The notes below the pieces were generated by a model. The model had not been told where the DNA came from, did no database searches, and worked only from the letters and a program-made list of their open reading frames with translations. A stretch of 62,313 nucleotides of DNA, filler included, from Sphacelaria rigidula (taxonomy: Eukaryota): NCBI GenBank assembly GCA_964200075.2. It is 7 parts of 7 records of this genome, joined end to end, with 100 filler letters (N's around TTAATTAATTAA, not from the genome) between each part and the next. Parts side by side here need not be neighbours in the genome. Positions count along the whole stretch, not along the records: positions 53,500 to 62,313 come from CAXNAA020010034.1; 6 more parts are not named here. One strand, 5' to 3'. Below are positions 8,493 to 62,313 of the stretch, piece after piece. Made by a program: the position numbers and the translations under genes. Numbering within the stretch: the stretch's first letter is position 1; every line of letters begins with the position of its first letter.

Positions 8493-8574
8493 GGGGGGGC
8501 GGGGGGCGTACTCATTTGTTGCTTGCCTTAGTCGTGTGACCATTGACCACGCATCCCTTTCGAGACGGAGCACT
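8493..8574 (-). mobile_element. Family A non-LTR 3' tail copy; other copies at 17893-17943(-), 26754-26811(+), 35670-35738(-), 55012-55097(+)
   Basis: gtgctccgtctcgaaagggatgcgtggtcaatggtcacacgactaaggcaagcaacaaatgagtacg followed by a C-run; variable 5' truncation, constant 3' end. Confidence 0.85.
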
Positions 8575-8818
8575 GGGGAGGCGGGGGTGTACTCATCATC
8601 ATGCATGCCATAGTCATAAGACCTTTGACCTCGCATCCCTACAAAGCCGGGACGGAGCACGCCGGGTTTCCGCCGGACCAGGCTCGCACTCAAACCACCA
8701 AGCGCGAAGCGCTCGGCGAGTCGCATGAAGGGTGAGCTGCATCCTGCTAAGGTTGTTCGGCCCGAAGCCTACTGATTATCTTGCATTTGGGTGACAGCCG
8801 ACAAGGAGTTGCTTTATT
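8575..8818 (-). mobile_element. Family B non-LTR element (LINE-derived or SINE-like) with a tail homologous to family A; copies at 8919-8975, 27615-27690, 28335-28633, 45210-45300(-), 53255-53399, 62250-62298
   Basis: Shared aataaagcaactc...gggccgaacaa.cttagca...agctcacccttca...gcctggtccggcg.aaacccggcgtgctccgtcccggctt.gtagggatg.gaggtcaa.ggt...atgagtaca-(C)n. Confidence 0.8.
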
Positions 8819-8918
8819 NNNNNNNNNNNNNNNNNNNNNNNNNNNNNNNNNNNNNNNNNNNNTTAATTAATTAANNNNNNNNNNNNNNNNNNNNNNNNNN
8901 NNNNNNNNNNNNNNNNNN
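8819..8918. other. Artificial contig spacer (44N + TTAATTAATTAA + 44N); identical spacers at 17737-17836, 26654-26753, 35570-35669, 44485-44584, 53400-53499
   Basis: Six identical 100-nt spacers with an all-frame stop linker; the pieces between them are 8818, 8818, 8817, 8816, 8815, 8815 and 8814 bp. Confidence 0.98.
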
Positions 8919-17736: not shown

Positions 17737-20244
17737 NNNNNNNNNNNNNNNNNNNNNNNNNNNNNNNNNNNNNNNNNNNNTTAATTAATTAANNNNNNNN
17801 NNNNNNNNNNNNNNNNNNNNNNNNNNNNNNNNNNNNATTTTTCACCTGGTTGGGGCCGGTTTAAGCTGGACCCTGTCACTTCTGCCATGGGTGGGGGGGT
17901 GGCGTACTCATTTGTTGCTTGCCTTAGTCGTGTGACCATTGACTTATACCATGGTGGAGAGGGCGATTTCATGTTCGGACGATAGGGCGAACCGCAACAT
18001 TTTACACCCAGATCACCTGCCATACGAATCTTCCTGATCCGTAGTTCTCGCTTGTGATTGTTGCGGCGTGAAGTTTTACTTGATGCTTTGTCCACCTTTG
18101 GTCCGAACAGTATGACTCGTCTGCACTTTTCCCCGCAAAACGTCATTTTACACGGGACAAACTTGGTCTCTCGAGTTGTGAACTATGACGATGAGTAAAC
18201 TCTTGAATTGTCGCCGCCATTTCTCATGGCTGGGTTTGGTTTTGGCATCTCGAGTGCTGTTCGTTTTTTGGGATTACCCAAGCTTCAGTATTACTTGCAG
18301 TGGAGTTGAAAGTTGTAACCACTGGGCTTCCATCCCTCCTCAGCCCCCAGATCGCCTGTGGTCAACTCGGATTTGCAACTGTTGGTCTTAAGTGATTGAC
18401 ATAGCACGTCTATTTACATGAGCAGGTGGATGCTGATCATTTGTACACAAGTTGATGCAAGAGAACCCCTGAACGGCTTTAAGCGAAGTCAGGTGTATCT
18501 ACGTTCTCACTGAACGATTGTGGTCGCATAGCTCTCCATGCTTTCGTGCTCTTCACGTGGTGTACGCCAGTCACCACTACAGCCCCAATTTTCACAAACA
18601 TCCTCTTTGCCTAATGCGTTCGTATTCTTGGGACTTTGGCGGAAGTGTTGACACACGTCGAGATTTTGATGCTCTGCATGTACATCGTCTCCACTGCTCC
18701 GTTCTGTACTGCACTGCTGCTGTACCGCCGTATGAAGACTACCACTAAACATACGGACTACCGTCGTACATGCGGATTTTTTTCACCGGCGGCTGGATAC
18801 CGCGGTGCAGAGAATATCTAGTGCGCTATTATCCTTTTCTGCACATAGTCAGCGCTCTTTTCATCTCTGCTTCATTTTTACAGTACTCGTAGTGTGGAGC
18901 TGTTTTGGTAACACAACAGGGGGCAGGCAGGTTGCAAAGATTGCACGGTTCGGACGAATCATCGCCGGTTCGAATAACCAAATCCACGATTTCTTAGGCC
19001 TGATTGCTCGAACGAAAGAAAAAAGTCGTTCGCTGGCCGAAAAGTTCTTCACGCAAATCTTGCGCCATTGCATGCGCCTGGGCTGCGCGCACCTGGGTTG
19101 CAACGCTGAAAACAAAGCCTGAGGATTGATTCGTACGGTACGAACCAACTACACTAAAATCACGTAACTTCCAGACGAAACATTAGAATTCGTCCGACCC
19201 TTGAAAGATTGCGCGAAGAGCTAAAAAGTATCTGAGTATCCCAGTGATTTCTCCAGCTCGAGTAAAACGCTGCTCGACCACGACGTGCGCGAAGATGAGC
19301 GATCTGAACGGCAACGTTATGGACCAAGTGATCAATCGGTCTCACCATGGTGGTCACTCCCATCCCCTCTAGGTCTGTCGCTCGATTGACAATTACCTGC
19401 AGGCGCGCATGGTTGATCTGGAGGGCATGTCGCTTTGGCTTGGAACTTGCGCCTCCTCTCCCCGCTCAAGCACCCTCTTTCTCCACGCTGCCGCCCTTGA
19501 AACCCAGAGCTGTCAGTGAGCGACGCTATTCCTAGCAAAAGCCCGCAGTCAAATAGTGAACTCGTTGGCTACGAAGGTTTTGGGATATTCACTGTGGCAG
19601 GTTCATTGTATTGATATTGAAGTTGGCAACATGGACCTAAGTATCAACGTCTGAAGTTGGCCTTTTGAATACGTTTTTGTCTAGTTTTCTCTATTTGCTC
19701 CATGGTTTCTTTCTTCGTCGTCTCCATTTCTCTACTTTCCTTTAGACAGAGTTTCAAATTTTTTCATCGTGGGTACAGTGCGTTTATCTTATGGATAATG
19801 ACCGCGGCTGCATCCCTCGGGGACCAGTCAATATTCGGTAATCAATCAATCAACCAATCAATCAAAGGTCGAGTTATCCTACAAAATAGCGGGGACGGTG
19901 GGTGGGGATCGGGGATCGGGGGGGCGGGGGCGGGGGCGGGATGGGTAACCGCCTTCTACAGATAGATCCTTTGAAGCGTCGACGCAGGCAGCAAGTTCCA
20001 CTCCAGCGGTACAGCATCACCATGAAGCATTTGTTTATTCAACCTGGCAACATTTCCCACCCGTGCACAGGCCCCAAGTGAGTGTGCGGGGTCGTGTAGC
20101 ACGCCCATCAACTCCCCCCATCCCACCCACCCCTCCTTATCATAGGATCACTCAGGATCACAGCTTACCTGTGTCGTTTGTTTTTCAACGCCTTTCTGAT
20201 GATGGTCTGTCTGTGTGTGCGTGTGTGTGTTGTGTTTGAGATAG

Positions 20245-26026: not shown

Positions 26027-26916
26027 GTGAGTATTTCACGAAGTTGTTTCAGTACAGACGGGCCGATCCGTCGATACGTGCCTGTCATGATCTTATCCGG
26101 TTGCGGTGTGTGTTCACGGTCTCTTCGCCAGTCTGCATTATCTCAACATTGACTATATATGTTGTCGCTTGATAACAGGTGACGGATTCGCGTGGTACGG
26201 CACACCAGAGGGCCAACGATGTTGATCAAATGTACCTCGGCAAGAGCACCGTGACTAGATAATAATGGCCCTCAGTTGCAAAGAATACGGCGAACGACCT
26301 CTTCGATTCAATAATACGAGCATTATTGCATGGTAAACATAAGAGATCGGGGACCGCGAAATATATGCGGTAACTTGTCGTTGAGGGGGGTGCGTGTAAA
26401 CAGAGAGAGAGAGGAGATGACTGCTCAGCTGCACCGTTGATGATAATTGCGTTGTTGGTTGGTCGGCGATACTTTCCCAAAAGCCGACCTCGCTCCTCAA
26501 GAGTGTCAAGATTATTACAACGTATCGATTGTCTGGTTGTATGTGTAATGCGTGGAGGACCGCGTGCTTAGAGGACCGCATCGGAATTCGAACATCCCTA
26601 TGGTTAGGGTTAGGGTTAGGGTTAGTAGTCGAGTTATGGTCAGAGGCGTGGTANNNNNNNNNNNNNNNNNNNNNNNNNNNNNNNNNNNNNNNNNNNNTTA
26701 ATTAATTAANNNNNNNNNNNNNNNNNNNNNNNNNNNNNNNNNNNNNNNNNNNNTGCGTGGTCAATGGTCAAACGAGTAAGGCAAGCAACAAATGAGTACG
26801 CCCCCCCCCCCAGTTGGTACAAACCAAACCTTCAACTTGTGAAGGCTCTGCCGTCTTGTCACCAGTGTGCACCAATCTTGATCGAATGTATTTGCTCCAC
26901 TGCCCTCAACAAACAG

Positions 26917-27060
26917 GCATGCAACAGCTACTGCGCGGGAATGCAGGCCGCATACATGGGGCTGCAGTACGGAAACGAATGCTGGTGCAGCATGGACGCA
27001 GCAAAGGACTTCGAGCGCCACGGCGTTGGTCTCTGCGACGAGCCTTGCGGTGGCGATTCG
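26917..27060 (+). CDS. WSC-expansin-like gene, exon a (second half of a WSC domain); 5' part of the gene is off-contig
   Basis: aaacag| ACNSYCAGMQAAYMGLQYGNECWCS...CDEPCGGDS |gtgagg; WSC Cys pattern and QYG.ECWC motif. Confidence 0.92.
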
Positions 27061-27904
27061 GTGAGGATCTTGCCTCAGAAATATGGAAGCGGCGTCCTTT
27101 GGTTGAAATAGGATAGCACATACTCCGGAGTACATGAATGTACATTGCTCAAATCAAGCCGTGGGCTAACACGTGCATCGATTTAGTTGCCGTTCGAATG
27201 GTACAATACTTTGCGAACTACATTTTCTACACGTTTCCCGGAAAACTGCAGCTAACTACTGTTATCGTATCGCCTTTTAGACTATGGTTTGAGGTGGTTT
27301 GAGGTGTAGTGCGTGGTCTGTGTTCGTCTTGACAACGGTATTTCGTGGTATGCACTCCCGAATGAAGTGCCGATGAGAGTCCAACCCCTTGACCGCCTTT
27401 CACACGGTGGGTAATCCTCTGGATAGACATCAATTTCACTGAGCACAAACCATATTACCAGCCACCCAAGAGTCGAAGATTTCGTGTTGTTCACGTAGCC
27501 ATTCTACTCGTACCTTCATCTCGCGTACTCTGACGTAACGGGAGTATCACAAGAAAGCAAGTACTCCCGCGCTACCCCCTCGCCCCCCTCCTTCTCGCCC
27601 CGCACCCCACGCCTCCTCCCGACTTTGTAGGGATGCGAGGTCAATGGCCTTATGACTATGACACGCATGATCTTAAGTACACCCACGCTCGTCCCCGCCC
27701 TCAACATTTTTCTTCCAACAGCGGTCAATCAACTACAAAACGGAGGACATTCCAAACTTGACTCTGCTTTGACGCGCATCGCCGTGGGCGAAACGAGCCG
27801 CACGTGGCAACCGCAGGTGCATGATTAGATGCATGGTACAGATCGCCCCTGTGTGAAGATGCGCCTCCTTCCCCTCGAACCCTCGCTCGGTGCCGTACAT
27901 GCAG

Positions 27905-28099
27905 ATGACGACGTGCGGCGGGGACTACGCTTTCGAATTGTACGCACTTGAGTGTATCGAGGAGACGCACTCTGAATACGTAGGCTGCTATCGCGACATG
28001 AAGAGCATGAGGCTGCTGAGCAACATGGTGGGGGATGAGGAGATGACGACGTCTATGTGCCGTACGCACTGCGACGGCTATAACGTCTACGCAACCCAG
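27905..28099 (+). CDS. WSC-expansin-like gene, exon b (end of one WSC domain, start of the next)
   Basis: tgcag| MTTCGGDYAFELY...YVGCYRDMKSMRLL...MTTSMCRTHCDGYNVYATQ |gtactt. Confidence 0.92.
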
Positions 28100-28809
28100 G
28101 TACTTCACTTATTAGAGTGCCGAGCAATCCCTCGCCGAGGGAAGTTGTTGAGTCCGTCCAATCAGCATCACGGTTGGTTGAATACACGATTACGTTGTGT
28201 GTTTTTTGCGGTAACCATGATGGTGGTCGAGCTAGATCTCTCTTGTGCGGGGTGGAAGTACCTCAATCCCGCGCGAAGGAGATGATTACTACGTAGTGTT
28301 TCAATGATGAGACACCAATGCGGCAGTGTTGGACGCGCGTGTCTGTCTCTGGAAGTGGTGACATCAAAAAATAAAGCAACTCTTTTGAGGCTGTCATCCG
28401 AATGCAAGATGATCAATACGCTTCGGGCCGAACAATCTTAGCAAGGTCCAGCTCACCCTTCATGCGGCTGGCCTAACACATCGCGGCGCTTCACGCTTGG
28501 TGATCGATTGCGAGCCTGGTCCGGCGAAAACCCGGCGTGCTCCGTCCCGGCTTCGTAGGGATGGGAGGTCAATGGTATTTCCGACCACGACCTGCGAGAC
28601 CATGAGTACACCCCCCCCCCCCTCCCCCCCACCCAGCGCGGGGCGGCTCTACGCCGCGATTTTTGTTGTACGGACAAAAGTGAATAATCGTGATCGTCGT
28701 ACGGTACACGTTAGTTCTCGTTTCTCGAACATGGTGTTCCATGATCCCTCATTGCGAAAAGTATTCCTCGTCTGCTCCTGCCGTCCGATACGCCGCCTCG
28801 TGTGTGCAG

Positions 28810-28912
28810 TACGGTAACGAGTGCTGGTGCGGCAATTCAGATCCGTCCGCCTACGAGGAAACCCTCGGAGTGTGTCACATGCAGTGCGCCGGTGATTCGA
28901 CCAGTCCCTGCG
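28810..28912 (+). CDS. WSC-expansin-like gene, exon c (WSC)
   Basis: tgcag| YGNECWCGNSDP...CHMQCAGDSTSPC-G |gtgagt, phase 1. Confidence 0.92.
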
Positions 28913-29195
28913 GTGAGTGTCTAGATGATTTGCCCGTCGAGCGCAGTGTTTTCGTTGCGTTTCCGTCGCGAGCGTCGCAGTTGTTGCAGTTGTCGCATAC
29001 TCCCTGCTCTTCGAAACTCCGTTGTCGCCTCGATCCACTCGAGGGTGGCGTGGGTGAGCCAACAAGTTTCTCCGTGGTTCCGGTTTCCACAGCCAAAGTA
29101 ACCGAAGTATCGAGATATTTTATGCACTACTTTCGATATTTCCTCCTCTCCTCGGTCCTCCTCCCACTGTCCGCCACACCTGGTACCTTATGCAG

Positions 29196-29494
29196 GTGGA
29201 TACCTGGCATTTAGTCTTTACGAGTACAGCGACGGAGTGACAGCCGAGCCGACCGACACGCCTGTCGCCCAGCCAACTCCCGAGCCGGCCTCCGCGTCAA
29301 GTGGGGGATCCACCACTGGAGCAGAGGCACTGTCCGATGACGACGATGACGCAACTCCCCTTCCTGCTCCTTACGATGGTGCAAGAACGGGAGACGGAAC
29401 CTACTACGGTACAACGTCTGGCGGCAACTGCGGGTTCAAGGGCGACTACCCTGTCAAGACTGATGGATATATACCCATGGCGTATAGCTACGGT
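29196..29494 (+). CDS. WSC-expansin-like gene, exon d (WSC end, P/T/S/D-rich linker, start of the DPBB domain)
   Basis: tgcag| GYLAFSLYEY...TAEPTDTPVAQPTPEP...DDDDD...RTGDGTYYGTTSGGNCGF...AYSYG |gtaagt. Confidence 0.88.
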
Positions 29495-34623: not shown

Positions 34624-35059
34624 TTAAAACAGTACACTTCACAAAACCCTTCAGCTCTACTTCACCCTGCGAAATTTTTCATTTTCGGAAGCTTGATGAG
34701 ATAGTGCAATGTTTTTCCATCATCGTTCACGTTCGACGAGGGCGAGATTCGACCTTCGACTCAAGCAGTCAGTGCCTGAAAGTGTGCGCGTAATAGGCAA
34801 TACGCGGAGACTTGATGGTGGATCTGACACTTTGATTCTAGTTAAAACAGTACACTTCACGAAACCCTTCAGCTCTACTTCACCCTGGGACATTTTTCAT
34901 TTTCGAAAGCTTGATGAGATGGTGCAATATTTTTCCATAATCGTTCACATTCGACGAGGGGGAGATTCGACCTTCGACTCAAGCAGTCAGAGCCTGAAAG
35001 TGTGCGCGTAATAGGCAATACGCGGAGACCTGATGATGAATCTGACACTTTGATCCTGA
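34624..35059. repeat. Direct tandem duplication, ~218-bp unit x2
   Basis: ttaaaacagtacacttcac...tctgacactttgat starts at 34624 and 34842 with few mismatches. Confidence 0.92.
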
Positions 35060-35568: not shown

Positions 35569-37002
35569 TNNNNNNNNNNNNNNNNNNNNNNNNNNNNNNN
35601 NNNNNNNNNNNNNTTAATTAATTAANNNNNNNNNNNNNNNNNNNNNNNNNNNNNNNNNNNNNNNNNNNNGGGGGCACTTATTTGTTGCTCGCCTTAATCG
35701 TGTGACCATTGACCACGCATCCCTTTCGAGACGGAGCAACCCGGTTGGGGGGGAGGTCAAGTTGTTCGAGAAAAACTGGAAATTATTCTGAAAAAGATTG
35801 TATTTCAGCAGAATCATATATTTTCCTGTCTTGTCTTATTTTTTGAAATTTTATTCCTTGATATCGTCCGCAGGGTGGAACATACGCGTGGAGCTTGGGC
35901 AGCATCACACCGGCGACCACAATAGCGGTGTATTTTGAAGTGACCAACAACCAGTCGGAGCCGCTACCGGTGCACAAACGCCGCTTTTTACAGGTGGGTG
36001 GTTATTTTCCATCTAGATGAACGAATATTATTCCGACCTCTTGAAGTGGTACCTACATGCTCCTTGATGCATTTTTGAATGTTTTCATCCTGTATTTCCA
36101 TATATTCGAAGTGTTTCATACTTGGAGTATGACGTGGAAAATGAGACATTTTTATCAGTGCATCAAGTGACCATTTCAATTCGGCATTGGTGCAGCGTGT
36201 GTATGTGTGTATGTGTATTGCGTGGTACCGGAACTGTGCGATGTGCTTAACCCATTCCTTGACTTATCAGACCTCTTTTTTGCAAGCGAAAATGTCATAC
36301 CTTTCCCAGTGGACGGACTCACACGACCCTCATAAACGAGCCAATATCTGAGTGTGCTCCGCGTTGGTGCCTGCATACCCGTGCACCGAATCAGCAGTCA
36401 TGACGGATTTGCTCAACCCGAGAACCAAAGGTTATAGCATATATACATCGATAGTGCACTCGCTGGGATATTCGTCATCATTTGTGACAGTCAGACGGTG
36501 CAGTTGGGATTGTTTTCATATATACATTTGTATGGGACACAATCGGAACAGAAACAAGTGTGCTATCTATGTATATATATCATAACCTTTGCCGAGAACG
36601 AGAAGTGGCTAAGGGGATGCCTATACCGTCAGTATATGCCCATATTTCTCCACGTATGTTCCATATAATGCGTCACGAACCAACGGAAACTCATTTAATC
36701 GCGCGCCGAGTTCGAGAGGAGAGAGAAAGCGACATAGACAGCACACACGCGCGCGCTTACGCACACAGAGAGAAACGGGGGGTAGGCCGTGAGAATGATG
36801 GGGCGCCCTTTGTGGATGCTAGCGGCACGCCCGCTGCAGTCCCCGGCGGTGTTCCGCCTCATCCCGAACCCGCGGCGTCAGCAGCATCAAACAGCCGACG
36901 ATCGAAAATGAGGACGGAGCCTTTCATTTTCTCCATCCTCAATTTCGATGACCGGCTGTCATCAGGAGCGTCAGCTGTTGACGACGACGACGACGACGAC
37001 AA

Positions 37003-42251: not shown

Positions 42252-44904
42252 GGCACTGAGGTGAGCCCTCACTCATGACGCCTTATTATTTTTTTTGTTC
42301 CCTTGATGGAAGGAGGAACCCAACTCATCGCAGGCGATCGCTAGCGAGTTCGTGTGCCGATTCCCAGAAGGCTCGGCTAGACCACCTCGCGGCAGTCATG
42401 TGGGGAAGGCGCCTCGAGCGGTGGCTCATGGCAGTGTGAGGGATGCTCCCACTGAAACCCCCTGTCAACTTGGCGCAGTACACGCGCCGCCCTGCTCTGA
42501 ACAGCTTCGGCGCTAGATGGCGGCTGAGTTGGAAAATAGGGTAACGCGGGGATCCCATGGAGGCGATGAGTCCTGACAAGCAACCGGGTATCTGTCGGCG
42601 TCATCTGCATCTACATGCACGATCTCCACACTCCCACCAATTGCGTTGTACTTACAGTCTATTCTCTCTTTCACTCTCTATATATGTAGCCCTTCGGTGC
42701 GAGGTCTCATTTCGGAACAAAAATATTGTGGGGTATTTCTGGCAAGCGCTAACCATGGCGCAATAAAGTTGCTTGAGTTGTACCGTAGCAACCTGTATCG
42801 CTATATTTGCCGTGCTGTTGGCAACTCATGTGGGTATGCTACGCCGGGTTTTCACCGGCGCGAGAAGGATCTTGCGAGAAAATTGTCTGAAGTAGGCATG
42901 GTGCCCAAGAGGTTGCTATGTGTAGTACAGATGGCACAATGCACCTGGTGGGAGTGTGAGACTTGTGCATACGGATGTCGCCAACTCAGTGTCTACCCTC
43001 ACGCTCCGCAGAGGGTCAAGATATTTCACCGTCTTATCAAAGCTACCATACTCGGCAAAATCGCAGGCACTTTCCTCATGGCGAGTATTTGGGCATCCGC
43101 TCTACGAAACCTAGTATATTATCGGCGCACGGCAAATCTCTGGTATACCGACGGGAAAGATTTCATGCGGGGGGCAATTTTTCGATTTCCGGGGTGAATT
43201 ATTGATATATAATGGACAAAAAAAAGTGCGTAGGCCTATGATCTCCTGAGGATCAGCATTTTTTGTCCTCTCTCTATTTGCAAGGGAACCGAAGGCAGAA
43301 AAAACGAGGAAAATGGTGGTAGCATGTTGAATTTAAAAAACTTGTGGATCGCGACAGTCATTCACCAGTCAAGTCAGTCAGTCAGTCCGTGGGTAAAATG
43401 GCAGTGCGATGTCCTGGTAACTTACCTGGTTGTCATTATCCACGAATGCGTCGGCGATAGAAACGAGGGGACCTAAAGAAATGTACGTGAACAGTGGTTG
43501 GTACTATAGGGATGCCGCCAACCCTAACCCCAACCCTAACCCCAACCCCGGCCAAGTCATACCGAGAACCCTCGGGCAAGGGGTTGCAAAGTGTTTCTTG
43601 AGCTAATTGTGCGTTGCCAGAGCTCAAATCGACGCCTTTTTTTAGCCGATTTTGGCCCAAAACACGTTCTGGACGAGCCGGGTCAAGTGCTCACCACTGC
43701 TAACCTGCCCCAAATCATCAATTTTCTTAGCACTTTCTTCAGTCTAATGTCAACTAAAATCGAGTACCAACCATTATTTACGTACGTTTGTGTAGGTCTA
43801 CTGATGGAAACACGATGCCAAAAGATCTGCCGCTGAAGTAAAAACTCTGGTCCTACTGACGGCCAGGGTGGGCAATCTGTTGAACTTGCGCTCACGTGCA
43901 CTTTGAAGAATGTCGTACGAACTGACTGAGACCCTACATGACTTACTCCGATGGCGAAAGGGTTAACTGCCGTTTAGTCATCGATGTTGTCCCAAGTCAT
44001 GTGCAAAGATCGTTGAGATCATGCGAGAATATGTTGCGTACGGTATATCCGATTCCCAGGTATTCAGAAAAAGTCGTACTCTCTAGTACTCGAGACATTG
44101 AAGATAATATTGAAATCATGAGCAGATTATACCCCGAAAATATAAGTAGAAAATGAATATTGAGATCGTAGCCAAATTATCCGGAACTTGAGTATGAGAC
44201 TGAAGTTATACCTAATTGATATTCCTTACCCGGGTTATACCGAGAGTACTTACCCAAAATTTGGGTAGTCTGAAGATCGTGCCCAGCTCTACCTATTCTT
44301 TGGTTAGACTGATGAGGTAGTACCCAATCTACCCAAAACTAGGGTGAAATACTCACCCGGGTGTTATATCCCAGTATTCGAAAGAGTCATCCTACGATAG
44401 CGGGGGGGGTATTCTAAGTCATTTGTTGCTCGAGATTTCGAGTCAGATCGTCGTTGAAAGAAGCAACGGTTGTTCGAACAAGCTNNNNNNNNNNNNNNNN
44501 NNNNNNNNNNNNNNNNNNNNNNNNNNNNTTAATTAATTAANNNNNNNNNNNNNNNNNNNNNNNNNNNNNNNNNNNNNNNNNNNNCCAATCCCCCTCCTCC
44601 CCGCCTGGTCTCCTGACCTCCTGGCCCCTCACTCATCCCAGAGGCTCAAAATATCTCATCCGCTTTATATAGTTTTCCTCCATCGCTGCTCCATTTTCCA
44701 CTCGTATCCTATATTGTCCGGATATGTTGTTTCCGTCCTGCACAACTACTTGCGTAATTCACCTGCACTGTTCATGGTGACTGCGTTGTGACCTGGTTCT
44801 TTGATGACTACAACTGATCACCAGGATTGATTCTTGCTTACGCACGGGTGTATACGTCAAAGGTAAAAAGGATGATGATCGAGATGTATGATGCACAACA
44901 ACAG

Positions 44905-51693: not shown

Positions 51694-54600
51694 GTGATCC
51701 CTGCAACACCCCGAGAAACACTTTCGCTTAAAAAGTGCCACCCTACCGTAGCATCACTCGAAGAAGGCAGCAATGAAGCTGAACCTTTTTGACGGTGTTT
51801 ACAGTGATTCGGAGGGCCGGTTGGTGCGTGTGATGCCTCCAATCTCAAAACGTGCCTCGTTTGAAGTTGCGACAATCAAGTCTGAGAAGTTCGATCAAGA
51901 CTCGCTCTGGTCAAAAGGAGTCGAAATGGGGGTGGACTCGTGTGCGCCCCGAGACAGCAGCAAAACACAACGTCATGAGCACCAATGAAGCTGGACTTGT
52001 TGAGGGTGCCTCGATCAATGTTGGAAGAGCAATGAGATGGTTTTCTCGCGCAGCGCGGCTTCGAATCAACTCGGTAAAAAAAAATGCGTGGTTCGGAGCT
52101 TCATAATGAGGCACGAACGGGCAGAGGGACGGACGGACACTTTTTGAATTTCATTTCAGTAAAAGCCTCTTCAGTCCTATGAGCCTCAAAGGAAAAAAAG
52201 CCACAAAATTCACCAAACAAAAAGAGTAATGACAACTTTCGAAAACTTGCCCCCCGGGAGAGCGGGGGGGGTCTCCGCGTCCAAAATGTTAATACGGCAG
52301 ACCCTTGGGCTAGCTGCAAGTAGATTCAGAGTGAGGATTCCAATTGTGTATACAACCGTAAACATTTCTGGCGGGTGCGAACGACACTTGTACTGCTTAT
52401 TTTTTTTCAACCACATCTACACAAGACATATCTGGTATGCAGTATACCTGACAGCAACAAGCCGATTGCTACAAGCTGGAGCTAGCAGATAAACTGAGCA
52501 GGGAGCAGAGGACATACACGAGATTCAGCTATTTGATTGATAGTAGTAGTATCTATTCCTCTGGTTGCATGAATATTACTCATAGATTGTGATAGCTGGT
52601 ACAAGCCTAGTAATTTCTCGATGTGAATTGTGTAGATATCACCAAACATGCTGCTCCCGCACATGCAGCGTGGAGCATCTTTATAGCACTGCTTCGGTAT
52701 ACCTCCATAGACTGCCCTGTGCCCAGGGCGCTTCCAGTTTCAATTTATTTCGGTGTGTGTGACGTTGGCCTTGGATTGCGGCGGTAAAACTGGAGTGGTC
52801 TCGGCTGGGTCTTTGTTAGAAGTATCTCTAAAATGAAGCCCTGTCGCACGCACCCGGGGTATGGTGATTCGTCGTTGCACGGAAGCGTAAAGTTCTATTG
52901 AAGCGTAAAGTTGTATTGAAGCATACACGTGTTCGTGTTATCGTCGTCGCCCTACATTCGCAAGGGCCCGCAGCAAGCCGGCGCTGAGACACGAGCCGTC
53001 CCCGGCGAATTCCCGCTAGGTTGTTCCGCACTAGTCTCAGCCACCACCATATGCCTGTTTTCAAGTACACATACAGGACTCCCTTCCCAGTATACCAGAG
53101 ACGAAAAGTTGCACACTGCTGTTTCTTGGACAGACAGGAGACAGCATCAAGCGTTAAGCAGCTGCACGCTAGGTAGAGGGGGCCCATATCGGAAAATGAC
53201 AGAACCACCCCTCCCTCTCTCTGGTTAGACAACCATGACGCAGGGTAAAGGCCGTGGCTGTCTCTGGAAGCGGCGATACCACAGAATAAAGCAACTCAGT
53301 GTTGGCTGTCATCCAAATGAAAGATAATCAGTAGGCTTTGGGCCGAACAATCTTAGCAGGATGCAGCTCACCCTTCAGGCGCCTCGCCGAACACACTACN
53401 NNNNNNNNNNNNNNNNNNNNNNNNNNNNNNNNNNNNNNNNNNNTTAATTAATTAANNNNNNNNNNNNNNNNNNNNNNNNNNNNNNNNNNNNNNNNNNNNC
53501 TATTGGGCTCGTTTGCAGCAATTCCGCCCACATGAGAGGCGTGCATCAGTCCAAAACTAGCTATAACGCCCAAATGAGTCGCATCGTGCAACACGAAACC
53601 AGCTCCGACGGCATTTATGATCATCACCTCCGTGCACGTTTTTGGCCGGTCCGTGGGGGGGCTATCTCGGCAGCAGTCTTCCGTGATCGATCGCGTGAGG
53701 GAGGATGCACACCAAAAACATCCTGCATGCTCCCGGTCATATGATGTGACGCCTTCATGTCTGCTATCCACTTCTCGGTACCGTTACTCAAGTCCAAAAG
53801 AGTCTTTCCTTGTGAAGCAATGTAGATCCTCCTGAATAAAAATGTCCGAGCCGGAAAGTGAACAATTGTTGGTGTGGAATGCGGTTTGCACAGCTGAACA
53901 TGCTCCGAAAATGTAGCATCAGCGGAGGACGACTCGGTAAATTTCGGGGCATGGGAGGGTGCATCTTGAGACTGGTGATGATCGGGTGTGAACGGCGGGT
54001 AGTGAGGTTGGTGGTAAAATGGATGAGGTTAGTGGTATGTCGGGGTCGGTCAAGAATAAAGTGGAGTTGGGTATTGAGGTGGATATTGTTGGTAATAGTA
54101 TATGAGTATATAAAAGAGCAGTGGGTGTGCGGTGGCTGCTGCTGAAGTTGACGTTGGGGTGGCGACGACTGTTGGTATCAATGCGTGGGCGAGGATGGCG
54201 ATTGCTGCACGCAATGAGCAAATCCGGTGCCGTCGAAAGCGTGACGATCGTTGGAGATTAATTCACCGCCGTTTCCCGTGTACGTTGCGGTCGATGGAGC
54301 GGAAGTGGCGTGGGCGTGTGATGATGAAGAATCATGAAGGGATGATGTCCTCCGTGAGGTGCTGCGTGAGGTCCTGCGGCATACGTGTTTGGCGTGTGTC
54401 TGAAACATCAATCGTCTTGCTGGCGTTCGACTTCTCTGCACTCTTTTCCACGCGATTGGGCATAGTGGTGGCCACCAGCTACGTCATGACATACACATGT
54501 AACACAAGACGATTCCTGAGGTTGATGGAGCTGACCCGAATAGTGTGGGGATGCAGGGCCGTGACCATCACCTCTACCCCCTCAGAATCTTACACCTCGG

Positions 54601-54782
54601 CTGCTGGTGGCCCTGAGCAGGGTTTGAGTACTGGTGACCCCTCCCACGCCCCTGACCACCGTTCACCCCCTTGGTTACCACAGCCATCGTGGTGTTGATG
54701 ATGGGGGCTGTGGTGTGTGGGATGGCTGGGGCAGCATGGATTCACGTACGGTTTTCCTCTGCCCCCCCCCCCCGCCCCCCTA

Positions 54783-54896
54783 GATCAACGGGAAATCCCT
54801 TTAACACCTGTAGAGCAACCTCGTTCATTAGATATATTAGAAAATGAAGCCTCTGATTTAGCTAGATTTCTAAATATTAATTTAAAGGGACTATAA
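54783..54896 (+). pseudogene. ycf4: Nuclear plastid DNA insert (NUPT): 3' end of ycf4; AT-rich presumed plastid spacer continues to ~55010
   Basis: Translates DQREIPLTPVEQPRSLDILENEASDLARFLNINLKGL*, matching the Ycf4 C-terminal pattern R.IPLT...P....E..A..LA.FL; abrupt switch to very AT-rich, plastid-like codon usage. Confidence 0.88.
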
Positions 54897-55149
54897 CTAA
54901 CTTAGTTAATTAATACAAATGTAAGTAAAATAAATATTATTTAATTCAGATATCAAATTAGAGAATATTTATTTTACTTTATCAAATTTATAATTTCTTT
55001 GTGTTTTGTTTGTGCTCCGTCTCGAAAGGGATGCGTGGTCAATGGTCAAATGACTAAGGCAAGCAACAAATAAGTNNNNNNNNNNCCCCCCCCCCCTCCC
55101 CCCGCCCCCCTAGGTCACCTGCCCGCTGCACGATGCCTCCGGGGCCCCC

Positions 55150-55800
55150 AGATGCAGTAGCGACGAGCGCTTAAAGTTGCCCCTGCTTTTTCTCTAGATG
55201 CCTCTGGCGCAGCATGCGCGGTCTTTATAGTCCGCTCTAGCGTCTGAGTGTCAACTTCATCCATCGCTATAGTAGTAACAGACCGCCTTGAGAGTCGTAA
55301 TCTGCGAAGAACAACGGACACAATACCGATTCGTATCTGCATCCGACATCACGAAAGTAAATCGTGCGCGTGTCTGCGGAATCGAATTCGGCCTGCTTCA
55401 GACAACTCAAGGGGGTTTTCCGAGACTCTTCTCCAGATTCTGCCACCCTTGTTTCAGCTTGACCTTTTCAGTAGCTGGTGAAATGGTATAGTCTTCTACC
55501 AGACACTTCCACGCTTCACTGGAGCTCCTGAATATGGTCATTCATTCCACTGTATGAGGTACTGTCACTCTCTCGATAATCATCTCCTAAGCTCGCATTG
55601 CTTGGTAGAACATATTTTCATCATAGTGTCCCCTGGTTCTCCTCTGGGTCAAAGAGCACCGTGATGGGTTCAGCAGCTAAAAGGGCGTGGATGGGGGCAT
55701 TTTTCTTGCCTATAACTCGCGATCATCTGCACCCGAAAGACTCAAAACTTGGACTTAATCAAGGGTCTCGCCTGCGTTTACAGGGCCATCCCATGAGGGA
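55150..55800 (-). mobile_element. Degenerate gag-like (possibly Copia) remnant
   Basis: Interrupted translation SSSEAWKCLVEDYTISPATEKVKLKQGWQNL resembles the Copia gag AW..L...Y......L...W/F..L segment; many stops. Confidence 0.35.
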
Positions 55801-56559
55801 ATGCTGCTGTCGTTACGTACACGAAACAAATCTGTGTGAGCTGTTACCTTTTCGGTTCTGTGGGATGAAACCGCTCCTTACGGCTACATGATCTCCTATT
55901 TGCAGGCATAACCTGCTCCGATCTCTAGCTTCATTTTCCCCAAGTTTGTCACGTTCATACTCTGTCATTTATTGCTTGGTGCCTTGCGGTTTCTAGCTTC
56001 TGCTCTTCAACTGCCTGGAATTATTTCCTCAAATGGTCTCTCAATCTGTCGTCAGTAATCATCTTGGTGTTCAGGTCCATGGCTTGAATGTTCCTCTGTT
56101 CGAACTTTTGTTGACTCTATTCTTACTCTTGTTGACTGTATTCTAATCTTCCCAAATTTCGCAATGCATTCTTCTAACGCCCTATGTACCAGCCTATTTA
56201 CCCGCTCTGAGAACGCATGAGATCTCAGGGAACGCCCACACAGTGGGGATAGGGTGTTTACTCTTCCATCATTCACTCAATGCCAACATATACCATGCAC
56301 CCAGCCAACAAACAAAGGCACACGTATTGAGTGCTCCCGCAGCCTGCACCGCGCCCTTACGCCAAAAGCCGTAACCGGAATAAATAGTTGCCGTTCTACG
56401 AGATACTGCTGCTGCTGTCGCCATATCCATATGATTCGAAACATGGAGGTTCGAAGGCTGACGTATTACATGGCACATGGCACATGCACGTGATACCCGG
56501 CTACTGCGTGTAGCACAACGACGTCGCGTTTCTCGTTTGCTACAGAGCAATTCGTACCG

Positions 56560-56855
56560 TACGATTGCTTCGAGGATGGGCAGGGAATGTGTAGGTGTGT
56601 CCCGGGTGTTGCTGTGTCCACACGAGGCTCATTGGGCGAACGCAAGAGGTACTACTGTAAAATCAAAAGAGACATAACTAGATCCCTCGCGGGTGCGGTA
56701 CTTATTGACATTTCTGTAGCATGCACGCTTCTCGTGTGCGATGGAGCAGTGTGCACCATGAGATGGCTTGGGCGATGGCTAGGTGTACGAGCGTATTCCG
56801 GGTGTTGCAGTGTCCATACGAGGCTCATGGGACGATCGCCAAGCGGTACGGTTAT
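56560..56855. repeat. Diverged direct repeat, ~195-bp period
   Basis: ccgggtgttgc.gtgtcca.acgaggctcat.gg.cga.cgc.a..ggtac near 56600 and 56797. Confidence 0.7.
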
Positions 56856-57169
56856 ATCGTCGGAGGTTGAACTAAATCCCCCGTGCACGGGGATTTGGCA
56901 TTGCCCTACAAACTATGATATATCTAGACGCCAACCACAAAGCTTAAAATGTGCCTTTCGTTTGGAGACACAACGCGCCGGATAGTGCGGTAGACTAATC
57001 GAGAAGAGATCCGAGACAACGTAGTTGTTTTCCCTTATTTTCACTTCAAGTATTGACGTTTGCTGCTGATCAAGGATGATATGACGATTGGGCGAAGGGG
57101 ATCTACAAAAGTGGGAGAGTGATACCCCATAACCCTCTCCGCTAAATTTATTTATTATCATTTTATTTT

Positions 57170-57436
57170 ACATTTGTCGCACTTTGAACCCCTCCCCTTC
57201 CTTGGGACGAGTCCGTGCTCTCAGGGGATCAACACATCCCTCCTACACGCCTTGCATTTTGGTCTCGCGGACTGGGCCAGCATTCCCGCACCGCGTCAAC
57301 TCTCGTCAAACAAACTCGGTCTACTACTTCGTTCACTCACGTTCTCCAGCGAAGAAAAAACCCGACACATCGGAAATCGAACTCCCGTTCTCTCCGCCCT
57401 CATGATGACAGTCGGACCATTACACCACCGGGGCGC
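57170..57436 (-). mobile_element. tRNA-derived SINE, full-length-like
   Basis: Minus strand starts GCGCCCCGGTGGTGTAATGGTCCGAC (A-box) ... GAGTTCGATTTCC (B-box-like); ends ggttcaaagtgcgac plus A-rich tail. Confidence 0.82.
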
Positions 57437-60400
57437 GCCAGCTAAGCATGCCTCAATTATCAATTTCGACTAAAAGCAGTCCAGAATATTCAAACCTTCA
57501 TTCAGTGTAAACACCTCCAAGCTACACATTTCCATTAATCATTCTCCGGATATTACCACCTACACCGACCATCACCATAGGCCACGGCAACGTACATCTG
57601 GTGAGCAGTATCTTCGATGGTAATAACGACGACTACAGTGTAGTTCAATCGGTACCATACGGATCTTTCGTAGTGTGGGTGCCCTTTTTTTCGTGTAGAT
57701 GTTTTGGTTTCTTGCCTTCTTCTGCGGGCTGTTTCGGTTATGGGTATATTGGGGGTATGCTACTCGCACTCTGTGACCACAGGTTTGAGAGATCGGGCTA
57801 ATGTGATGGATATAATGAAATAATAAAAATTATAGAGACGTAAACCAACTTCTCAGAGGCCCAACGACGTCTGGAAGTCTGTGGCACATCGCCTCCCGGA
57901 TATCTGGAGGAAGAAAAAAACTATTGTACAGCCCTTCTAAATATCTCAGAGCACTCGTTTGCAAACGTTCAGGATCCACGTCAAAGTATACGGCGTGAGT
58001 AATCGCTGGGAAGTAAACCTGAACCAGCCTATATTGCCTACAATGAAGCTAGCATTTCTGTTTGACCTAGCGCCCGAGGGCCAAAATACGGTCATTTCCG
58101 TATATAGTTACCATACCTTGCGCGTGATTGCCGGCCTGTAGAAATCACTCCTCTGTTCGTGTGATACCGTCACTGCATTTTCAGTACATATCACGTTTCA
58201 TTCTCCACCGATAGGAATGGCGTCTCATTTCATGTGATGATGAAGCTGTGAACCGTCATTTCACCATGACTCTCACGGCATGAATATCATTTTCTTGCTC
58301 TTCTTGTCAAAACACGGCCTTCTGCCACCCAACACTTTCTGTTTTTAGAAGTACGTCGTGACACTCCTGCGGACATTTGGAGAGGCATGGACACTGCCGC
58401 AGGTCAAAACGCGGATCGCCTCCTGCACGAGAAGAAGCAGTAGCAGCAGCAGTAGCATCTTTACCACCAGCAGATGTGAACGGTTGCGGGTGGGGCTGAA
58501 TCAGCCCGTGCCGATACTGCTGCTGCTGCTGCTGCTGCTGCTCTTCCTTGTGCGAGAGACGGTCAGCATTGCGACCGTGCGACAACACCCACGCACCTCG
58601 CGCAGGATTGCTACACTGCTGGGAATCGCTGGTCTGAACGATACTACACGCCGATGGATCCACGCTTGCTCACTCGGCGCAGTGCTAGGAGACAGCTGTG
58701 TACGTCGGGTGTGTATCCCACGCGTGGCTACTCATGGTAACGGGAGAGCCAACTGTGCCCCCCATGAAGAGCCCAACAACCCACGCCTTGCAATCATGTG
58801 ACGTTCCTTGATTATCGTGAGAGTGACTTCGGGTGGGAGATGATAATCTGGCATCAAGTGACAGCCAATAGGCAACACCGAAATAAAAAATAACTCGCCA
58901 AAATCACTGTCACTCTCACGTCGCGTTCTCACTGTTCTGGTCTCGTTGGAATGGGACCTAGGGCCGTGTCTTAGCAAGTCATTTCTCCATCGAAAACGTG
59001 CGGTGGACAAAACGATCTGATAGCTCCTGGTTCATCAAAAATGACCATGGTTAAATTCACAATCTATCAGATCGGGGTTTCCCTTTTCAACCGCACATTT
59101 TCGATCGAGAAAAAAAGGTGCTATGACTCGCTCTAAGAACCCTTCTTGTGGAAGGGATTCTCCCCTTTTCCAAACTCCTTATTTTGAAACGAGTGCTAAG
59201 TGGTCGCTGCGATACCACCTCCCAAAAATATGTTCAGAAATCCCATTTGGGCGGGGGGCGGGGGGGGGGGGGGTCAGGAAGTGAAAAAACACTTCCCAAA
59301 ATCCCTCGTTCCAAAGGGGATTTCCGGACGCCTCGAAGGGGAACATACATGTCCCGTTGACAGGGGCGCATGCAAAGTGTCACCACACAACCTAACACAA
59401 TCAGAGCTGAACCTGAGGAACTTGATGCCCCTGCGAACCAAAAACATCCAGCTCGAGACGTAGCTGCCCATCAGGTAAGAACGTTGTGGGTGACCTTGCT
59501 CAATCTGTTCAGAATTCATTGAGAAATGATTTCTGTGAGACGCGCGCACAGCACATGCGTACACACGGTCAGCAACGACACGTTTCCGTCTGTTTTTGAC
59601 ACTCGCACGGCCGCCATTCATCCAATACAGAACGGATTTCCGTCAAACGAAGAGTGCCGTGTGTCGGTTAGCAAGGGCTAGCGTTGGCACTAACGCGCGT
59701 GGGTGGTGAGTACCTGCATGTTTTTTCCGTGCTGAGTGTGTACGTGTTGTGTTGCTCAGTTGCGTCTTGTCTGTAGCATTACATAGACCTTAGACCAACG
59801 ACCACTTCGAGACTCGCCGCATTCCTGAACCCATGTGCAGCTCCGGGGTTCGATTTTTATAAAAGTGCTTCTCGATACAGTGGAGATTCCCCCAAGTGTC
59901 AAGAGGGAAAATAAGCACTGAACCGGGCACCCTCGCTGAACCGGTTTAGCGGTTAATAACCGCTATTCTGCTATCTGGTTTACCGGATATTCGGAATAAG
60001 GCAAGCGTTACTGTAAGAAGGTCCGAGAGCTGGATAACCTCCAGTTTCTAACTAAGCGTGAGACGCATGCGGAGCCCGCCCTGTTTTTATTTTGGACCCA
60101 CCCTGTAGAAAGCCCTCTCCCTCTAGATTTTTGCGCTTGGTCGCACTCGAGCTGTCACTTGGAGCGTCAGTCGTTTGTGCAGGGCAGAACCGGCAGAGCG
60201 ATTCATCTCGTTTGCCTCAGGATCCTCTATCTCGCCACAACTACCGTGGGGGTGGCCTCCACACCCACCGTGACACGGATGCCCGTCGGTGGCAGCTGAT
60301 GTCATGTGTTGATATTTGCAGAACTCTAAGGCCACACACGGCATGATTTGAGCACGTAGCTGCAGCCCGCAGAGCCAGAGTGTGTGCCGTGTATTTACAG

Positions 60401-60445
60401 CAAAAGGGGCTCCGTTGCTGCTGTACTGTTGCTGTATTAAGGGGT

Positions 60446-60739
60446 ACTTTTTTTTGTCGCACTTTGAACCCCTGCCCTTCCTTGGGACGAGCCCGTGGTC
60501 TCCGAGAATCATTCCATCTCTCCCCCGGTACACGTCTTGCATTTTGATCTTGGGGATTGGGTTAGCGCTCCCGCACCGCATCAACTCACGTAAAACAAAG
60601 TCAGTCGACTACTTTGTTTACTCACGTTCTAACGCTTTCCACGGTGGAAATCACATACTACGAAGAAAAAACCCAACACATCGGGAATCGAACCCTCGTT
60701 CTCTCCACCCAAATGGCGACAGTCGGACCACCGGGGCGC
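60446..60739 (-). mobile_element. tRNA-derived SINE copy
   Basis: GCGCCCCGGTGGTCCGAC...GGGTTCGATTCCCGATGT head; tail ggttcaaagtgcgacaaaaaaaa. Confidence 0.82.
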
Positions 60740-61145
60740 GGCACACAGCCGCCATACCACCTGAAGCCGTTCTAAATAACCGCTGTAGCGGTAACCATCC
60801 ACTGAACCGGGGCCAACCCCCCCTGTACAGCAGAGCTCATCACTTGATGATAATTTCTGACTTGGTTTTAGTATGGATCCCGAAATCCGAATCTTTAATG
60901 GGGGGGCTGTGCTCCTGGCGTGCACCATTACACTACCGGGGCGCGGCACACAGCTGTTATACCGCCTGAAACCGCTCTAAATAACCGCTGAACCGGCCAT
61001 CCAATAAACCGGGCCCAACCGCTGAAAAGGGAACCACTAAACTGTACCGTAGAATTCACCACTTGGTAGGAATGAAATTTCTGACTTGGTTTAAGTGTGG
61101 GCCCCGAAATCCGGATCTTTAATTGGGGCTATGCTCCTGGCGTGC
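60728..61145. repeat. Diverged ~205-bp tandem duplication including the SINE 5' tip
   Basis: accggggcgcggcacacagc...ctaaataaccgctg...atttctgacttggttt...ccgaaatccg.atctttaat.gggg...gctcctggcgtgc occurs twice. Confidence 0.8.
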
Positions 61146-62313
61146 GCAGAACGCGTTTTCGTCGAAATCGACGCTGCCGGCGCCGATTTGAGGTCTGCCG
61201 ACGCACGCTTTGCCTACGGAACACTTTGCACCCGCCCCCTTGTCCTAGGGTTCTCGGTTTGCCTTCGTTGGGGTTAAGGATAGGGTTGAGGTGAGAGTTA
61301 GGGTCAAAGATATTCGAAATCACGAATTTCCGAGAAAGTTTCATACCTACCAAGCGGGTAAACTAACCTCTCTCGATAAGACCCAAAACTGGTTGTTGTG
61401 ACGGCGATCCCGCTTCAAAAGGGGATTTTGAAAAAAGGGCAAATCCCCTTCGATAAGAAGGGCATGAAGTGTTGAAAAACTAGGGGTGGTAATCGCCGGA
61501 ATCCCCATCATTTTCGTTTCAGACCGAGCTGGGCCAGCAGTAAATTCTGCATTCGCTTTCCACACCACAACTTTCCAAGTTTTCCAAATCAGCGCGACTT
61601 GAGCATTCCGCTGTGCAGTCCAGACCAACCTGGTAACACACGGCACCGCCGCTGAACAAACAAAGACAATGAAAAAAATGTACTGCATAATATATGACCT
61701 TAACGACGAACGAAAAAAAGAAGAGAGTATGTCGGGATTCGAACTCATAGACCTCCATAATTGCAGTCTCCTATATAACTTCTCCTGTATCACTTGAATT
61801 GAACGAGCGCAGCCATGTCACACGAAAAGTGCGACGCAAAGCCCAATTTGAGGTATTCATGGTCGAAACGTTTCCAGGATATTGTTGACGCGAGTGCCCG
61901 CATGTGTTGGAGCGTGGTCGTCGTTTTGATCATTTTTTATTGTATTTTTCCGAGAGCAGGTCGAGCAGAGTATGTACTTCCGAGTACTCGAGTGAAATAG
62001 ATCGCTCTGCTTCGCATTGCGGTTCCAATTTTCCTATCCTTTCTAACATTGGAAATGTAATGGAAAAGGGACAGAGGAGACAGACGCCTTCAATAAAGAG
62101 TGATGGGACTCGCCTTCTTTGGCGGCATCTGAGCCGCCGGCGTGAAGGAGAGAGAGTGCTAGAGCTGTTAAGGCCTTTTTTAACGAAGAGGATTCCCCTT
62201 TTTCACAATCCATTTCAACCCTTAGACAGCGACCCCCCTGTTGGTAGACTAGCCTGGTCCGGCGAGAACCCGGCGTGCTCCGTCCCGGCTTTGTAGGGGC
62301 GGACCCCCGATGG

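Follow-up and report, generated by a model that had tools for sequence, protein, structure and literature searches.

A plastid ycf4 fragment joined to a retroposon tail within one putative target-site duplication in Sphacelaria rigidula

We analysed a stretch of 62,313 bases from the draft genome of the brown alga Sphacelaria rigidula (the window) and describe a composite locus near its end. There, the 3' part of the plastid gene ycf4 and the spacer downstream of it are joined to the tail of a highly abundant retroposon family, and a 16-nt direct repeat stands on either side of the pair. The insertion is young, and it is very probably a real nuclear locus. The plastid piece and the tail probably entered together by target-primed reverse transcription (TPRT). 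We tentatively propose that this was one event, carried out by machinery of the RTE-X type, in which the reverse transcriptase (RT) jumped from the retroposon RNA onto a ycf4 transcript. We infer the single event, the involvement of an RT and, above all, the choice of RNA rather than DNA as plastid template.

Anatomy and plastid content of the insertion

The locus lies in the last scaffold of the window (53500-62313), about 1.3 kb in from the scaffold start. A direct reading of the sequence confirmed the layout given in the first-pass annotation, namely a 16-mer, ycf4 codons with their stop, a spacer of about 115 bp, the tail, a gap, a C-run and the 16-mer again. The left nuclear flank (54400..54761) is single copy, with no other copy in the window. 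It leads into the 5' target-site copy, C12-G-C6-TAG (54762..54783, + strand), which contains the exact 16-mer CCCCCCGCCCCCCTAG at 54768-54783. The order at this junction in the scaffold is left flank, C-run, TAG and then ATCAACGG. The 3' end of ycf4 occupies 54782..54896 (+), with 37 codons at 54783-54893 and a TAA stop at 54894-54896, and it is followed by 115 bp of spacer (54897..55011, +) with a GC content of about 15% and a hairpin. The right end of the spacer runs straight into the GTGCTCC of the tail, an RTE-X-like 3' unit that we assign to family A (positions 1-64, GTGCTCCG...AATAAGT; 55012..55075, +). Both ycf4 and the tail are on the + strand and hence, as had been claimed, in the same sense. 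A scaffold gap of ten Ns (N10, 55076..55085) comes next; family copies carry ACG and the start of their (C)n run at the equivalent place. The remainder of the element's (C)n run, C11 T (55086..55097, +), lies within the right-flank contig of the public runs X1 and X3 (see below), which starts at 55086. The 3' target-site copy, again CCCCCCGCCCCCCTAG (C6-G-C6-TAG; 55098..55113, +), is followed by the right nuclear flank (55114..55500), which is single copy and opens with GTCA.

The GC content of the window is about 46-55% throughout, and the AT-rich segment of this locus is its most AT-rich island (minimum GC 13% per 100 bp), one of three islands below 30%. The hairpin in the spacer has 24-nt arms (54923-54946 and 54956-54979) that are 92% complementary and enclose a 9-nt loop. 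The predicted fold of the spacer has a minimum free energy of -20.3 kcal/mol (z -2.96), and 3 of 200 shuffled sequences folded equally well. The fusion to the tail sits 32 nt beyond the hairpin.

The identification of the middle segment as plastid ycf4 and its spacer, made in the first-pass annotation, was borne out by a Ycf4 domain, a brown-algal protein match and contigs at plastome depth. The Pfam profile Ycf4 (PF02392) matches at its positions 144-170 of 170 with E=3.8e-4, a score under the gathering threshold because the piece is short. In a large protein collection, PF02392 was present in all 42 proteins with E<=1 among 52 candidates, and the named ones belong to Phaeophyceae. The best protein match has 97% identity across 88% of the 42-aa query, and its source names it as a Sphacelaria rigidula product. 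A search with full-length Ycf4 (P0001) against metagenome contigs gave a 48%-identical, non-brown-algal locus as its sole match; the same query had no match in viral contigs or in genome contigs. Two plastome papers contained no text on the gene order at ycf4.

Logan contigs of four public runs were aligned to 54400-55500. In X1 and X3, positions 54770-54991 are covered at 13,000-72,000x, compared with flanks at about 72x (X1) and about 30x (X3), and this high cover is that of the plastome. The plastome contigs read ...TGTTATTTATCTTTGTACTAA upstream of 54782, which matches the expected ycf4 codons ...V I Y L C T K. Since they diverge from the scaffold there, the plastid homology has its start at 54782, and target and plastid DNA have the AG of TAG in common. 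Over about 230 bp, the scaffold differs from the plastome at two sites, reading A for G at 54885 and at 54936, where all aligned contigs read G. The codon that opens with position 54885 encodes K in the scaffold but E in all six brown-algal Ycf4 sequences compared. Since G would be expected in a misplaced plastome contig, the two differences suggest a separate, slightly decayed nuclear copy, and the scaffold sequence is probably not derived from plastome reads.

The flanks of the insertion have equal single-copy depth in three runs (left/right: X1 71.7/72.5, X3 32.5/27.7, X4 11.6/14.9), which counts for a real nuclear locus. One contig each in X1 and X3 covers the left flank with no letter differing from the scaffold, and in X4 this flank is covered to 54680. 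The contigs of X1, X3 and X4 show no other letters in the right flank either. The segment thus shows homology to the plastome together with divergence from it by two substitutions; as to its embedding, it is contiguous with the left flank in the scaffold, the flanks are at single-copy depth, the N10 gap lies on the right, and no contig among those listed bridges a junction. In X4, 54807-54991 is uncovered, and the flank contigs end at 54680 and begin again at 55136. We considered this hole as a possible empty allele or as absence of the plastome and rejected both, as it proves nothing. A further run, X6 (marked 'RNA?'), has cover on the tail bins only and none on ycf4, and it has no bearing on expression.

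A retroposon family with a recurrent boundary

The tail belongs to a dispersed family. Its 28-mer has four matches in the window at up to three mismatches, compared with none in 100 shuffles, and a search with the full 64-mer returned six copies with E<1e-9, the query itself included. Copies of the 64-nt unit are present on five of the seven scaffolds that make up the window. In X1, 35,470 contigs align to the unit, with a summed depth of up to 1.9e7. The copies end in ...AACAAATGAGTACG and a C-run of about 11-20 with an occasional G, T or A. Ends of the form GAGTAC(G/A) plus C-run were seen at 8514-8573, 17910-17943, 26754-26793 and 8307-8324 and in a copy of a sister family, B, near 28557, and the consensus of loose contig ends in four runs agrees with them. 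Other family A copies run on with ACG and a C-run, and they align across the N10 gap with indels of 0-3 nt. At the other end, copies on different scaffolds start at unit positions 1, 2, 27 (17910-17943) and 43 (8307-8324). This combination of a shared 3' end and variable 5' truncation is generally characteristic of retroposons without long terminal repeats (non-LTR), and the earlier claim of a dispersed retroelement tail thus stands. Its more specific label, long interspersed nuclear element (LINE), is not assignable from the window, where none of the 136 open reading frames (ORFs) of at least 100 aa contains an RT or endonuclease domain.

Family B (8606-8684, near 28513-28622 and near 62251-62298) shares GTGCTCCGTC...GGGATGCG.GGTCAA.GGTC...ATGAGTAC plus a C-run with family A. 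Units also occur in tandem with only short C-rich linkers between them, which is visible in contigs as joints that go back by 64. On the - strand at 8514-8684, a family B unit with its C-run is followed directly by a full family A unit that ends in C6GC7. This composite could have arisen when a unit was inserted into a C-tail, or when an RT jumped from one retroposon RNA to another as its template. Translations upstream of the family A and B tails gave no coding frame, and Rfam covariance models, run at E up to 1-10, matched none of the tail copies. A hammerhead or HDV-like ribozyme was considered for the unit and rejected, given that no Rfam model matched and that the conserved cores were not in place by eye. 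The core pattern of the tail had no match in viral contigs; its 120 bacterial matches in genome contigs are due to chance, as none extends beyond the pattern.

These traits resemble those published for RTE-X elements of another brown alga. In an entry of supplementary file 1 of PMC12477816, the autonomous RTE-X LINEs RTEX-1/2_Ec32 of Ectocarpus are annotated with '(C)n 3'' and a 'C-rich' target-site duplication (TSD), and the non-autonomous RTEX-N1/N2_Ec32 are said in a passage of the same source to share their last 60-100 bp and to be such that they 'can be present in tandem'. A statement in its main text names RTE-X elements as the most abundant transposable elements of the Ectocarpus genome. 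The C-run of the Sphacelaria tails is therefore a family trait and not an oddity. Families A and B show each of the published traits, and on this resemblance we file them as RTE-X-like. The Ectocarpus elements and ours have in common the (C)n terminus, the C-rich TSD, a shared 3' end of 60-100 bp, tandem occurrence and top copy numbers. They differ in that the Sphacelaria tail comes from another brown-algal lineage, that the window holds no endonuclease-RT ORF and that the 64-nt unit often stands alone as a discrete module. A literature search for poly C-tailed non-LTR elements found no paper.

The repeat that brackets the composite is exact over 16 of 16 positions, and it extends to 24 of 26 positions when 54762-54787 and 55092-55117 are compared. 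Ten exact direct repeats of at least 16 nt occur in the window at a spacing of 30-600 bp, this one among them. The four bases after TAG agree at three positions (ATCA on the left, GTCA on the right). Between the plastid start and the right flank there is a microhomology, AG(A/G)TCA, that matches at five of six positions, with 2 nt exact at the left junction. Since C-rich TSDs are the rule for RTE-X-type elements, a TSD in a C-run is to be expected here rather than suspicious. The copy at 17910-17943 has a C-rich duplication as well (CCACCATGG upstream, CCACCCATGG downstream), with five extra nucleotides (TATAA) at its 5' junction, and the family A unit at 8514-8573 is flanked by two similar C-runs. 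Together with the ycf4 locus, this makes three of the three window copies in which both flanks are readable. A single duplication around both parts had been claimed in the first-pass annotation; the bracketing repeat is present and fits a single insertion.

The plastid piece adjoins position 1 of the unit (55012), and this position is a recurrent boundary. Four window copies extend to position 1; three of them stop there, joined to a family B C-run, to a C-run plus 8 nt and to plastid DNA, respectively, and the fourth continues into the element body. The copy at 7790-7838 extends upstream into the body with ...GGAGTAGGAACG, and this sequence is likewise the consensus of the loose ends in roughly half of the contigs at 55012. 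Among the loose ends listed for X1, 594 contigs end at 55012, 250 at 55013 and 114 at 55015, and the consensus at the latter two positions is a C-run. Hundreds of contigs carry a C-run immediately ahead of position 1. In addition, 19 contigs in X1 join 54778-54781 to 55012-55016. We rejected these joints as evidence for an allele without the plastid piece; their sides are just 18-25 letters long, so we assigned them to other copies with a C-run ahead of position 1.

The first six bases of the unit, GUGCUC, can pair with the GAGUAC ahead of the C-run, as read from the sequence and in part from a predicted fold. Such pairing would bring position 1 and the tail together. At 55072, the tail of the ycf4 locus reads A, compared with G in 121 X1 contigs (family consensus ...AAATGAGTACG), and this A would weaken the pairing.

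An AT-rich island at 35761-35870 (GC 27%), second in AT-richness within the window, was examined as a second chimera. The tail copy just downstream of it begins at unit position 2, with a C-run between the two. We rejected this reading; being outside the copy's C-run, the island looks like ordinary flank.

One insertion event and its alternatives

The composite has the two properties expected of a template switch, in that both parts are in the same sense and one duplication encloses them, with a repeat of 16/16 and 24/26 positions and of low complexity. The duplication does not flank the tail alone, which excludes an order of events in which the plastid piece came first. In the single event that we propose, the G-run at a nicked C-rich target (C12GC6TAG) would pair with the C-run end of the element RNA, and the RT would copy the structured 64-nt 3' unit back to position 1. 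From there it would jump onto a ycf4 transcript of the plastid at its 3' end, about 32 nt beyond the 3' hairpin, and copy about 230 nt of it. The end of the cDNA may then have been joined to the upstream target end via the AG(A/G)TCA microhomology, leaving a C-rich TSD of 16-22 nt. For RNA as the plastid template speak the sense orientation and the resemblance to the 3' end of an mRNA, that is, the end of a coding sequence, a 3' hairpin and an end soon after it. Stated most fully, leaked mRNA of the four-membrane plastid would have been reverse-transcribed in the nucleus or cytosol by an RTE-X-type RT jumping end-to-end from position 1, which we consider a conceivable course of events, slightly more doubtful still than the one-event proposal itself.

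The same anatomy could arise if the single TPRT event had ended differently, with a free plastid DNA fragment caught as filler by end-joining at the 5' junction via AG(A/G)TCA. We hold this to be somewhat less likely than a jump onto RNA, and the likeliest of the alternatives. It predicts an anatomy identical to that left by a jump onto RNA, and passages of PMC12129026 and PMC12863932 attribute the integration of nuclear plastid DNA (NUPTs) and of nuclear organellar DNA in general (NORGs) mainly to end-joining, with microhomologies and sometimes flanking duplications. The microhomology at the left junction (2 nt exact, 5/6 when extended) suits it, and fillers are known in the family, namely the TATAA of the copy at 17910-17943. 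That filler is 5 nt long, whereas the plastid piece measures 230 bp. Furthermore, a random plastome fragment would have to match the tail in sense and to end just past a 3' hairpin, for which a rough estimate, not computed on the plastome, gives less than 10%.

Several points weigh against a jump onto plastid RNA. The sense orientation would arise in one of two cases by chance, and the fusion lies 32 nt past the hairpin and not at its foot. Plastid RNA would have to get out through the four membranes of the plastid and encounter the RT. What is on record for NUPT formation in general favours DNA, and a passage in PMC12863932 describes the RNA route for NUPTs as remaining uncertain. The direct fusion is also less secure than the remainder of the anatomy. 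Plastome-level depth can be followed as far as the bin 54955-54991; in the bin after it, tail copies mask the signal, and for 54992-55011 a plastid origin is suggested by composition (18% GC). On the retroposon side, the window is devoid of an RT or endonuclease domain, as noted above, and the tail is RTE-X-like by its resemblance to described traits. Finally, the duplication itself has to be judged with care. Its low complexity had been raised as a caveat in the first-pass annotation, and this caveat holds and is stronger than stated there. Of the 16 duplicated letters, 13 (C6GC6) resemble the family's own 3' C-run. By themselves these 13 carry little weight, since C6GC7 forms the end of the copy at 8514-8573. 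What is specific to the duplication is the trailing TAG and the G six bases ahead of TAG in both C-runs.

Further points against our proposal concern the assembly, and they would equally be expected if the plastid piece, the tail or the link across the gap had been mis-joined from short reads at the C-runs and the abundant repeat. The right junction in the scaffold is the N10 gap, which lies within the tail. None of the Logan contigs listed bridges from flank to plastid piece or from tail to flank, and the flank contigs stop within the C-runs or short of them. At 54885 and 54936, no aligned contig had the A of the scaffold, although contigs drop rare variants, so that this does not amount to absence. 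The tail is hyperabundant, with tens of thousands of copies, and the C-runs are of low complexity. We nevertheless regard an assembly artefact as improbable. The scaffold differs from plastome contigs of the same runs at the two sites given above and so is probably not a product of plastome reads. From the left junction via the two variants to the right junction, the distances are 103, 51 and 75 nt, which long k-mers or single reads may well link. Moreover, the pieces on either side of the gap were assembled separately and both contain the 16-mer, and the depths of the two flanks are equal.

Two independent events would be another way to reach the same arrangement. A copy of the unit alone would have inserted with its duplication, and plastid DNA would later have been end-joined at the precise border of the 5' target copy and position 1. 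A C-run immediately precedes position 1 in thousands of copies, and the locus without the plastid piece would be an ordinary copy of this kind; NUPTs also tend to co-localize with retrotransposons, according to a passage in PMC12863932. However, the break would have had to fall on one exact phosphodiester bond with no loss on the side of the unit, which even within such a copy may be expected in roughly 1 in 75-100 cases. We therefore think two events very unlikely.

Least probable of all, in our opinion, is a 5' transduction, in which a read-through transcript of an older NUPT, the unit and its (C)n was retrotransposed and truncated at its 5' end inside ycf4. It would give the same sense, the direct fusion and the single duplication, and no plastid RNA would have to be present in the cytosol or nucleus; the family is also highly active. 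However, it leaves the fusion at unit position 1 unexplained and requires a second locus with an identical junction. Two rounds would also have had little time, since the piece of about 230 bp differs from the plastome at just two sites.

Neighbouring features, known systems and implications

The window consists of seven unrelated draft scaffolds of about 8.8 kb each, ordered by falling length (8,818 to about 8,814 bp). They are separated by six artificial linkers of the form N44-TTAATTAATTAA-N44 at 8819-8918, 17737-17836, 26654-26753, 35570-35669, 44485-44584 and 53400-53499. As the linkers join separate scaffolds, adjoining pieces of the window are not genomic neighbours. Scaffold 3 has three telomere-type repeats (TTAGGG) at 26600-26625, a few dozen bases short of its end. 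On the + strand at 26755-29211, WSC carbohydrate-binding domains (E 8e-8 to 2e-5) are encoded by three ORFs, which are broken up by family B tail copies near 27629 and 28557. A tandem duplication with a period of 218 bp and exact common blocks of 19-38 nt is located at 34624-35030. Weak Rfam matches on both strands at 58411-58570 (isrG and miRNA models), all far under the gathering score, suggest a long palindromic hairpin. The first part of the last scaffold (53500-53678) is an inverted repeat copy of 1290-1474, 85% identical and with an internal C-run of C7 as compared with C14; it is unrelated to families A and B.

Chimeras made by LINE template switching are known, for example the mammalian U6-L1 retrocopies; NUPTs are known as well, and so are (C)n-tailed RTE-X elements. 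Our searches brought up no plastid partner at the tail of a LINE or short interspersed nuclear element (SINE) in an alga with a secondary plastid. For the origin of SINEs, a model holds that the head of a cellular RNA is joined to a LINE 3' tail. The ycf4 composite is similar in having a foreign head and a tail of roughly 60 nt of the kind recognised by a LINE RT; it differs in that no promoter is known for the ycf4 head and the composite shows no sign of amplification.

A close parallel is found in Magnaporthe, where PMC2104539 describes chimeras of WEIRD, Mg-SINE and MGL that arose by LINE template switching at specific template positions and are flanked by one TSD. In these, as proposed for our locus, a same-sense RNA copy as 5' partner is fused directly to a LINE 3' part within one flanking direct repeat (14 bp in the fungus); the switch site in Sphacelaria would be unit position 1. 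Compared with LINE template-switch chimeras in general, the Sphacelaria partner comes from an organelle rather than from RNA of the nucleus or cytosol, the tail is (C)n and not poly(A), one locus is at hand, and the RNA origin of the partner is a proposal.

Organellar sequence has been linked to non-LTR machinery in mammals. Retrocopies of mitochondrial RNAs mediated by L1 are proposed in a part of the RetroSeeker paper (PMC11727581), and Tsuji et al. 2012, as cited in a passage of PMC9338431, proposed that L1 endonuclease aids the integration of nuclear mitochondrial DNA (numts). These cases share with ours the arrival of organellar sequence in the nucleus via non-LTR machinery, marked by a TSD and a tail of the element's type. 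They concern whole polyadenylated mitochondrial transcripts of mammals, whereas the plastid piece in Sphacelaria is tail-less and rides on a LINE/SINE 3' unit, in an alga whose plastid has four membranes. NUPTs and NORGs formed by double-strand-break repair, as described in sections of PMC12863932 and PMC12129026, are likewise short nuclear fragments nearly identical to the plastome, with junction microhomology and an adjoining retroelement. Unlike these, the Sphacelaria piece is fused base-to-base, as far as seen, to the boundary of a retroposon unit, and both parts lie inside one long C-rich duplication typical of a retroposon and not of end-joining.

Literature searches found no paper on a plastid-LINE chimera, although supplements of bioRxiv preprints could hold cases; what comes nearest is the proposed L1-mediated copying of mitochondrial RNAs in mammals. 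In the part of the brown-algal genome preprint 10.1101/2024.02.19.579948 that was available, 'NUPT' and 'plastid DNA' have no occurrence, and the sections at hand of the retrocopy review PMC5470649 contain nothing on organellar partners.

The transfer of organellar sequence to the nucleus is usually explained by DNA fragments and end-joining, and a route via plastid RNA is called uncertain in a passage of a 2026 review (PMC12863932). A plastid piece at a template boundary within a retroposon-type duplication would tie plastid transfer to the retroposon machinery. With one locus on a gapped draft scaffold, the case is a good lead rather than a result. It makes the question of RNA or DNA countable, as there are tens of thousands of tail copies per genome in which strand bias and agreement with transcript ends can be scored. 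If our reading is true, template jumping by retroposons would be a working RNA-mediated route from plastid to nucleus in brown algae, and identical jumping would build the tandem unit arrays of the family.

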